This document shows positions 1,928-2,356 of a stretch of 7,931 bases of DNA, in pieces; the first letter of the stretch is position 1, and each line of letters starts with the position of its first letter. The stretch spans positions 1 to 7,931 of IMG/VR virus record IMGVR_UViG_2778261067_000005. The stretch is one strand, 5' to 3'. The stretch comes from a virus (Duplodnaviria > Heunggongvirae > Uroviricota > Caudoviricetes). The position numbers were made by a program, and so were the translations under genes. The notes beneath the pieces were generated by a model. The model saw nothing but the letters and a program-made list of their open reading frames with translations, did no database searches and was not told the DNA's origin.

Positions 1928-2356
1928 ATGTATTGCCGTGCTGTACCGGTTCTTGTTTTGATATTAGCCAGTCTGACAACTGGCTGCACAAAAGATGTAT
2001 CGACAAATAATTATGATGCTTCTCTGTATCACTCAGATAAATTAATAAAGTCGCAAAATTTGAGCTCATCGGAACGTACCCCTGATGCCAGTGAAGAAAT
2101 CCGGCAGTATGCCATTCAGGTCAGGAAAGCCATAGAAGAACAGTTAAAGGATGCGAGTAAGTATTCAGGAAAAGAGTGCTCACTGAGAATGTATATGGCC
2201 CCGAATGGTCTTCTGCTACAGGTTAAAAGAGAAAGCGGTGATCCTGATTTATGTCGTGAAGCGATGAATGCAGTAAAAAATGCTGATATACCATCACCAC
2301 CGTCTTCAGGAGTATATAAAGCATTTAGAAATGGCGTGCAGGATTTTAAACTCTGA
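1928..2356 (+). CDS. Secreted or lipid-anchored protein with a TolA C-terminal domain (TolA-III)-like fold; prophage cargo gene
   Basis: 142-aa ORF with GGAGA SD 7 nt upstream. N-terminus MYCRAVPVLVLILASLTTGC is a signal peptide with a lipobox-like LTTGC (position -3 is T, not canonical). The C-terminal ~85 aa align by eye with E. coli TolA domain III as I recall it, including both cysteines. The gene is AT-rich relative to its neighbours. Stop TGA at 2354-2356. Confidence 0.8.
   Translation: MYCRAVPVLVLILASLTTGCTKDVSTNNYDASLYHSDKLIKSQNLSSSERTPDASEEIRQYAIQVRKAIEEQLKDASKYSGKECSLRMYMAPNGLLLQVKRESGDPDLCREAMNAVKNADIPSPPSSGVYKAFRNGVQDFKL

Follow-up and report, generated by a model that had tools for sequence, protein, structure and literature searches.

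A 7,931-nucleotide stretch of Caudoviricetes DNA (IMG/VR record IMGVR_UViG_2778261067_000005, positions 1 to 7,931), which we analyzed whole and refer to as the window, carries a small gene at 1928-2356 whose product is, by sequence, profile and predicted fold, a homolog of the C-terminal domain III of TolA (TolA-III), placed behind a predicted lipoprotein leader. The gene occupies the position that the Shiga toxin (Stx) genes hold in a related phage, and it is most likely lysogenic-conversion-type cargo, a ‘moron’, of a lambda-like prophage. As to function, we put at about an even chance the reading that the protein serves as an unenergized decoy, tethered to the outer membrane, against the Tol-dependent import of group A colicins and filamentous phages.

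The identity of the domain is supported by profile, alignment and model. The Pfam family PF06519 matches residues 52-135 (E=2.9e-22, 79.1 bits against a cutoff of 25), phmmer aligns the TolA-III chains of the Protein Data Bank (PDB; 1s62, 3qdp, 2x9a and 1tol) to residues 54-141 with E~1e-24, and a gapless alignment with residues 333-420 of E. coli TolA has 44 identical positions out of 88 (50%). The cysteines that form the disulfide of TolA-III, C363 and C388, correspond to C84 and C109, both invariant in an alignment of 45 family members. An AlphaFold2 (AF2) model built on an 82-sequence alignment has a predicted local distance difference test score (pLDDT) above 90 at residues 51-142, with residues 1-50 disordered. 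In Foldseek, the modeled domain superimposes on 2x9a_B and 1tol with a root-mean-square deviation of 0.8 Å (0.8-2.1 Å over the TolA-III structures) and reaches TM-scores to target of 0.88-0.93 for 3qdr, 2x9a and 3qdp; TonB C-terminal domains appear as more distant matches. The original prediction, made from the letters alone, had held that the C-terminal ~85 amino acids resemble TolA-III and keep both disulfide cysteines, and it had named profile searches and structure prediction as the check. PF06519, the PDB chains and Foldseek all returned TolA-III.

Mutagenesis of E. coli TolA-III has defined the residues that its ligands require: Y340, I344 and I348 for colicin N (ColN); D418 and K420 of strand beta3 for ColN, for the N1 domain of the filamentous-phage protein g3p (g3p-N1) and for TolB; and the stretch 375-LLDIKP-380 for colicin A (ColA) (PMC4339652). 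In the prophage protein, Y340, I344, I348, D418, F419 and K420 become Y61, V65, I69, D139, F140 and K141, with hardly any variation at Y61 and F140 across the family, and the ColA site reads LLQVKR. Because the mutagenesis-defined ligand residues Y61, V65, I69 and D139-F140-K141 correspond in this way, the domain probably retains the canonical beta-strand-augmentation site. The protein has in common with the experimental E. coli structures (1S62, 1TOL, 2X9A, 3QDP/3QDR) the fold, the disulfide, the D-F-K of beta3 and the alpha1 Tyr/Ile pocket for TolB, g3p-N1 and ColN. It differs from E. coli TolA, an inner-membrane protein, in its predicted lipid anchor in the outer membrane and in being encoded within a cassette of foreign base composition.

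The remainder of the protein is a leader and a linker. The open reading frame (ORF; + strand, ATG start, stop codon included in its coordinates) encodes 142 amino acids and has, as the original prediction stated, its own Shine-Dalgarno-like sequence, a GGAG at 1916-1919 (+) that can be read in the sequence 8 nt 5' of the ATG. The predicted signal peptide, with its lipobox LTTG-C20, spans 1928-1987 (+). The leader MYCRAVPVLVLILASLTTGC conforms to a lipobox rule of the PROSITE PS51257 type (charged n-region, hydrophobic h-region, [LIVMFWSTAG]2-[LIVMFYSTAGCQ]-[AGS]-C, Cys at 15-35), which was run on the identical N-terminus of P0040: R4 is followed by the hydrophobic VPVLVLILASL and then by LTTG-C20, the parts of a lipoprotein signature. 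Its -3 residue, T, is non-canonical (L, V or I being canonical); sister lineages have the canonical lipoboxes IIIGC and LLTGC, and the lipobox cysteine is invariant in the 45-member alignment. Residues 21-53 (1988-2086, +) form a tether that AF2 models as disordered (pLDDT 45-57) and that varies in length and sequence among family members, and residues 54-142 (2087-2353, +) are TolA-III itself. An Asp at position +2 keeps a lipoprotein in the inner membrane (the Lol-avoidance rule); since residue +2 is Thr and not Asp, sorting to the outer membrane is expected. Export, lipidation, localization and binding are all predictions.

Databases name the gene tolA, and at face value this would make it a working duplicate of the Tol-Pal energy transducer (‘cell envelope integrity protein TolA’). 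The name is used by the Prokaryotic Genome Annotation Pipeline (PGAP) and by other sources, and the score against the NCBIfam model TIGR02794, 73.3 bits, exceeds the cutoff of 59.45, which explains PGAP's choice. However, the NCBIfam TolA models align only over their last ~95 positions, starting at model positions 266 and 297, and PRK09510 scores 99 against a cutoff of 213. The N-terminal transmembrane domain I, which couples TolA to TolQ-TolR, is absent, and the lipoprotein leader stands there; the Ala/Lys/Glu-rich helical domain II is absent as well, with ~33 disordered residues between Cys20 and the domain. This is the architecture that the original prediction had outlined, with a signal peptide and a lipobox-like LTTGC in place of the TolA helical domain. 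The gene also lies outside the tol-pal operon, in a lambdoid prophage between tRNA genes and nanS-p. Because domains I and II are missing, the protein is not a TolA and its database name is wrong; the architecture refutes a genuine TolA, to which we assign next to no probability.

Comparison with the collinear phage Stx2a_1447 places the gene in the toxin slot. By blastn, window positions 633-1670 match its methylase, ileZ and argN at 97.6% identity, 1671-2432 have no match and stand in place of argO-stx2A-stx2B, 2433-2616 match the segment directly after stx2B at 87% identity, and 2887-4062 match nanS-p at 98.3% identity. The unmatched segment is an AT-rich cargo cassette of 762 bp (1671-2432, +), delimited by the blastn boundaries and by composition (41% GC, against 51-56% in the flanks). 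Upstream of it lie two phage tRNA genes. One is a tRNA-Ile of the ileZ type (1488-1563, +), which reads AUA after lysidine modification and which ARAGORN names Met(CAT), RefSeq and Stx-phage records naming it tRNA-Ile (ileZ). The other, a tRNA-Arg of the argN type with anticodon TCG (1573-1649, +), is the last feature common with Stx phages before the cassette. Downstream follow a full-length prophage small RNA (sRNA) of the STnc100 family (2462-2675, +; Rfam RF02076, 199.9 bits against a gathering score of 47), which ends in a strong intrinsic terminator at 2644-2665, and nanS-p (2887-4851, +), a SASA-family sialate O-acetylesterase gene common to Stx phages. The STnc100 sRNA also follows stx2B in Stx2a_1447. 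That the gene sits between the phage tRNAs and nanS-p, exactly where the toxin genes sit in Stx phages, had been claimed beforehand, and these boundaries bear it out.

The moron assignment draws on three properties of the cassette: it is swapped for argO-stx2AB in Stx2 phages, 22 of 31 related loci lack it, and its GC is deviant. The best genome match, E. coli CB6837, is a lambda-like prophage with the order Q, DNA methyltransferase disrupted by insertion sequence IS2, tRNA-Ile, tRNA-Arg, TolA-III gene, nanS-p, DUF1378, DUF826, holin, endolysin and Rz. The gene itself has 41% GC and 33% GC at third codon positions (GC3), against 51% GC for the window and 62% GC3 for nanS-p. ATA accounts for 4 of its 6 Ile codons and AGA or AGG for 4 of its 8 Arg codons; the AT-richness and the rare-codon counts of the original prediction were exact. 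The window lacks argO, the phage tRNA for AGA/AGG, although the cargo gene has four such codons, and only the AUA-reading ileZ-type tRNA could serve its rare codons. This third tRNA of Stx phages is missing at 1650-1670, lost together with stx2AB.

The gene is widespread, not a one-off. Megablast matches occur in 895 of 5,426 complete E. coli genomes (~16%), 122 with the window lineage at an identity of at least 95% and ~770 with a sister lineage of ~81% DNA and 66% protein identity. A scan of viral contigs, with the window protein as single query, yielded IMG/VR loci in which the gene stands between Q and the holin, endolysin and Rz genes and co-oriented with them in 80 of 80 cases, with Q genes of three unrelated types and lysis genes of several. 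The ORF is intact, at 142 codons, in all 80 of these copies, and the ratio of nonsynonymous to synonymous substitution rates (dN/dS) between lineages is 0.2-0.3; this is a real gene under purifying selection. What comes next in these loci is nanS-p or, in members of the 66% lineage, a second TolA-tip lipoprotein gene in tandem, its product only ~25% identical. The second type (124-131 aa, with the C-terminus GFDMRG instead of LDFKP) is also the pO157p55 of the enterohemorrhagic E. coli virulence plasmid and occurs on at least 1000 contigs.

An exhaustive HMMER search returned 289 clusters. Among the best 150, 89 are short (at most 170 aa) and 61 long and TolA-like, and a strict lipobox rule passes 47/89 short cluster representatives as against 3/61 long ones. 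Named members, from Serratia, Kosakonia, Klebsiella and Hafnia, all bear the automatic name TolA, the same erroneous annotation that the window gene already carries. A neighbor-joining tree of the 89-residue domain does not separate a single clade of short lipoproteins from repeated captures. Among cultured phages a relative is found only in mEp460, and no sequenced Stx phage in the collection has a TolA-like gene. The protein matches PHROG 5772 (‘unknown function’), has no match among the BFVD viral structures at E≤1e-3, and, like the second-type paralog and the TonB-tip lipoprotein described below, matches no PADLOC defense model. The literature search turned up passing mentions only: a Cronobacter prophage ‘TolA’ (ESA_03048), a ‘TolA protein’ region specific to uropathogenic E. 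coli, and a cloacin-like plasmid with ‘TolA’. Two published leads were rejected: EDL933_2012 (32-fold ciprofloxacin-induced, TolA-type in PMC11125564) is a tail-fiber gene, and the induction of tolA in soil (PMC2948877) concerns the chromosomal gene.

Relatives are also carried by 1,327 plasmids, in three groups. Klebsiella IncF plasmids have a conserved pair in which a periplasmic thioredoxin-fold CxxC protein is encoded directly 5' of a 144-aa TolA-tip lipoprotein; the former has a signal peptide and a CVYC motif, and this oxidoreductase might form the domain's conserved disulfide. On pO157-like plasmids the leading region encodes proteins of the pO157p55 type. The third group is made up of small bacteriocin plasmids. 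One of these, a Klebsiella ColRNAI plasmid of 10 kb, combines a colicin-like tRNase and a lysis gene with an overlapping operon, found on 379 plasmids, in which the gene for a 123-aa TolA-tip lipoprotein overlaps that for a 121-aa signal-peptide protein with a TonB C-terminal domain. In NZ_CP030130.1 the operon lies at 2654-3387, divergent from the tRNase bacteriocin gene; the 379 plasmids are mostly of 10-12 kb, mobilizable and from clinical K. pneumoniae. In Enterobacter, a TolA-tip gene for 140 aa shares a plasmid with a pore-forming colicin. Like the window protein, pO157p55, the IncF protein WP_001567367.1 and the bacteriocin-plasmid protein WP_001237044.1 consist of a lipobox leader, a tether and a TolA-III with both cysteines, and are borne on mobile elements. 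They differ from it in sequence (25-37% identity) and in their partners, which are the thioredoxin-fold CxxC protein, the TonB C-terminal-domain protein or bacteriocin genes. A TonB tip is present in the prophage as well: just after Rz, CB6837 has a gene for a lipoprotein of 108 aa that contains a TonB C-terminal domain (Pfam TonB_C E=1.3e-14; leader ending in LVMGC followed by TQ), at the window-equivalent positions 8169-8495, 238 nt past the window's end. Its exact sequence occurs on at least 1000 contigs, and in each of the 80 viral loci it occupies the slot after Rz.

If the protein is a decoy, its ~33-residue flexible tether would suspend the folded, disulfide-bonded TolA-III right below the outer membrane, on the periplasmic side. 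The unenergized tip would sit where native TolA-III meets TolB-Pal, the same site at which colicin translocation domains and g3p-N1 would first appear. Lacking transmembrane domain I and any link to the TolQR motor, it could not transduce energy. It would capture the TolA-binding epitopes of ColN, ColA and probably colicins E1 and K as these emerge, and likewise the N1 domain of filamentous-phage g3p; import would stall, and the lysogen would be tolerant of the colicin or exclude the phage, a phenotype that we infer. Affinities for TolA-III have been reported as ~1-3 μM for ColN-T, ~12-15 μM for g3p-N1 and ~40 μM for TolB (PMC4339652, PMC7391070); since the invaders bind more tightly than TolB, a decoy at low level could trap them while barely disturbing Tol-Pal.

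The original prediction had put forward a decoy and a modulator of Tol-Pal as candidate functions. The bacteriocin-plasmid homologs, the conserved ligand residues and the operon that joins a TolA tip to a TonB C-terminal-domain protein make a decoy more likely. In its favor, too, are the conserved architecture of leader and tether, the intact and selected ORF, the STnc100 terminator, which insulates the window's cassette from the lysis genes, and the absence of a LexA box near the gene. The TolA-tip/TonB-tip operon is best explained by a double import blockade, because inhibition of TonB leaves the outer membrane unweakened, and tandem divergent paralogs suggest several ligand specificities rather than a single conserved host target. 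The mimics occur on lambdoid prophages, small bacteriocin plasmids and large IncF plasmids. More tentatively, and with rather less than an even chance, we propose that mobile elements of the Enterobacterales widely deploy secreted, mostly outer-membrane-tethered mimics of the TolA and TonB tips as a general ‘import-decoy’ layer of immunity. This layer would catch the translocation epitopes of bacteriocins and phages ahead of the energized machines, and the window gene would be its TolA arm.

Several observations weigh against a decoy. The window allele has a Gln at position 138 in beta3 (GVQDFKL; codon 2339-2341), where all other family members in the alignment are hydrophobic and where Leu stands in all 80 viral-contig copies, in the representative of a 259-member cluster and in TolA (L417); the exact window protein, Gln138 included, occurs on 157 contigs. 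A decoy would also bind TolB and could thereby cost the host, and E-type nuclease colicins bind TolB, not TolA, so that their block could only be indirect. Within the domain, dN/dS (0.22-0.24) has no arms-race signature. A tight linkage of TolA tips with TonB tips in prophages had to be rejected, the TolA tip being present in 5 of 31 informative loci. A literature search that left most subscription journals uncovered found no functional study of the protein or its close relatives. Signals of transcription count against it too: the only promoter-like site of the window lineage, at 1768-1797, matches at 9/12 positions, not above chance; the sister lineage has no intrinsic terminator between the gene and the holin; and co-orientation in the late operon, just 5' of the lysis cassette, fits expression at the time of lysis. 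The sister lineage has a 10/12 promoter-like site 30 nt 5' of the ATG, and the upstream DNA is not conserved between lineages.

The late position, the weak promoter evidence and the missing terminator of the sister lineage also fit another reading, to which we give perhaps one chance for every three against, namely interference with Tol-Pal itself. Made late, the lipoprotein would bind the N-terminus of TolB in competition with energized TolA, and the resulting transient tol phenotype, with less Pal at the wall and a leaky, vesiculating outer membrane, would aid lysis and release, and on plasmids the release of bacteriocin. The position between Q and the lysis genes is kept whatever the Q or lysis type, the TolB-binding residues D139 and K141 are retained, and the rare AUA codons adjoin a phage tRNA that reads AUA. 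Loss of TolA-TolB binding is known to cause leakiness (PMC4339652), tol-pal defects to cause hypervesiculation (PMC7391070), and the small-plasmid homologs, adjoining bacteriocin and lysis-protein genes, stand in a release context as well. Yet interference does not explain why a TolA tip shares an operon with a TonB C-terminal-domain protein or why divergent paralogs stand in tandem, and, with TolB bound as weakly as ~40 μM, the protein would have to be made in quantity. The bacteriocin is under a LexA box that the plasmid operon does not have, and in the window the strong STnc100 terminator sits between the gene and nanS-p with the lysis genes, insulating the cassette. The slot is, moreover, dispensable: sister phages have stx or nothing there, and many lambdoid phages lyse without the gene.

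We regard it as improbable, and a shade less probable still, that the protein has some other periplasmic role or none, whether by binding another partner (CpoB, a porin, peptidoglycan enzymes or a protein encoded by another mobile element), by stabilizing the envelope, or as a nearly neutral passenger in a hot spot of recombination. Several partners have been reported for TolA-III, which is an interaction hub (PMC7391070), the PHROG label and the PADLOC result name no function, and genome data contain many frameshifted or truncated copies. This reading has to contend with the dN/dS of 0.2-0.3 and the 80 intact ORFs in viral contigs, with the recurrence of the architecture on three kinds of mobile element across the Enterobacterales, and with the conservation of the canonical beta3/alpha1 ligand site.

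A decoy of this kind would have partial parallels among known systems. Llp of phage T5 and Cor of phi80/N15/HK022-type and mEp phages are likewise small phage-encoded outer-membrane lipoproteins for which a block of uptake from the periplasmic side has been proposed, Llp being a lipoprotein of the outer membrane's inner leaflet (bioRxiv 10.64898/2026.03.26.714494). They plug a specific receptor, FhuA, whereas the prophage protein would mimic the tip of the transducer and sequester the translocation epitope of the invader; no homology to Llp or Cor was found, Pfam, PHROG and NCBIfam scans of the protein giving only TolA, TonB_2 and PHROG 5772. Compared with stx2AB and other cargo between Q and the lysis genes, the cassette has the identical insertion point, from argN to the STnc100 sRNA and nanS-p, the same AT-richness and the same place after the phage tRNAs; it differs in encoding a predicted envelope protein of the lysogen and not a secreted toxin.

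Closest in design are the laboratory fragments of TolA-III and of the TonB C-terminal domain, which are likewise domains without a motor in the periplasm. Periplasmic TolA-III in E. coli reportedly gave colicin tolerance and delayed f1 infection in work by Levengood-Freyermuth and colleagues in 1993, and this work and that of Howard in 2001 are said to have found that dominant-negative fragments confer tolerance to colicins and phages, with leakiness at high level. The fragments are artificial, soluble and over-expressed, whereas the prophage gene is natural, selected and carried by mobile elements, and its product is predicted to be lipid-tethered. The domain and the automatic name were already known; what would be new, if the inference holds, is an exclusion-type lipoprotein that mimics the tip of an energy transducer.

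The remaining features of the window concern its flanks. Positions 1-621 are the 3' end of an IS2 transposase (orfB), which adjoins a DNA methyltransferase gene lacking its N-terminus (596/635-1447); the CB6837 record has the methyltransferase as two pseudogene pieces split by IS2. STnc100 is a known family, which a 2026 preprint ties to the PasD sRNAs, and in mEp460 and the S42 prophage an STnc100 sRNA lies directly 5' of the TolA-like gene. Between nanS-p and DUF1378, at 4853-4929 (-), there is a weak Esr41-like Rfam match (30.9 bits against a gathering score of 102) that may be due to chance; the preprint on Pas sRNAs describes Esr41-type matches near PasD and places PasA and PasC beside sialate-esterase, holin and lysozyme genes. 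A DUF1327 gene at 5750-6259 (+), which RefSeq calls truncated, keeps its first 80 residues and then has an unrelated, AT-rich (42% GC) C-terminal part; opposite it, at 6207-6692 (-), lies an ORF of 161 codons, of which RefSeq annotates 86 aa as hypothetical. The region looks like a second small insertion within the lysis region.

Among database entries called ‘TolA’, thousands are mis-annotated domain-only lipoproteins. All group A colicins and filamentous phages rely on the TolA tip. Resistance to them has been ascribed to receptor mutations or to tol mutations that cripple the envelope. If the decoy reading is true, gut E. coli and Klebsiella, including clinical clones with the plasmid versions, would have a new, horizontally transferred and low-cost way to tolerate colicins and exclude phages, which would be relevant to colicin- and phage-based therapeutics. 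Should the protein interfere with Tol-Pal instead, it would be a natural Tol-Pal inhibitor and a probe for TolA-TolB force transduction and vesicle formation. With a decoy as its occupant, the cargo slot of Stx phages could hold defensive and not only offensive cargo.

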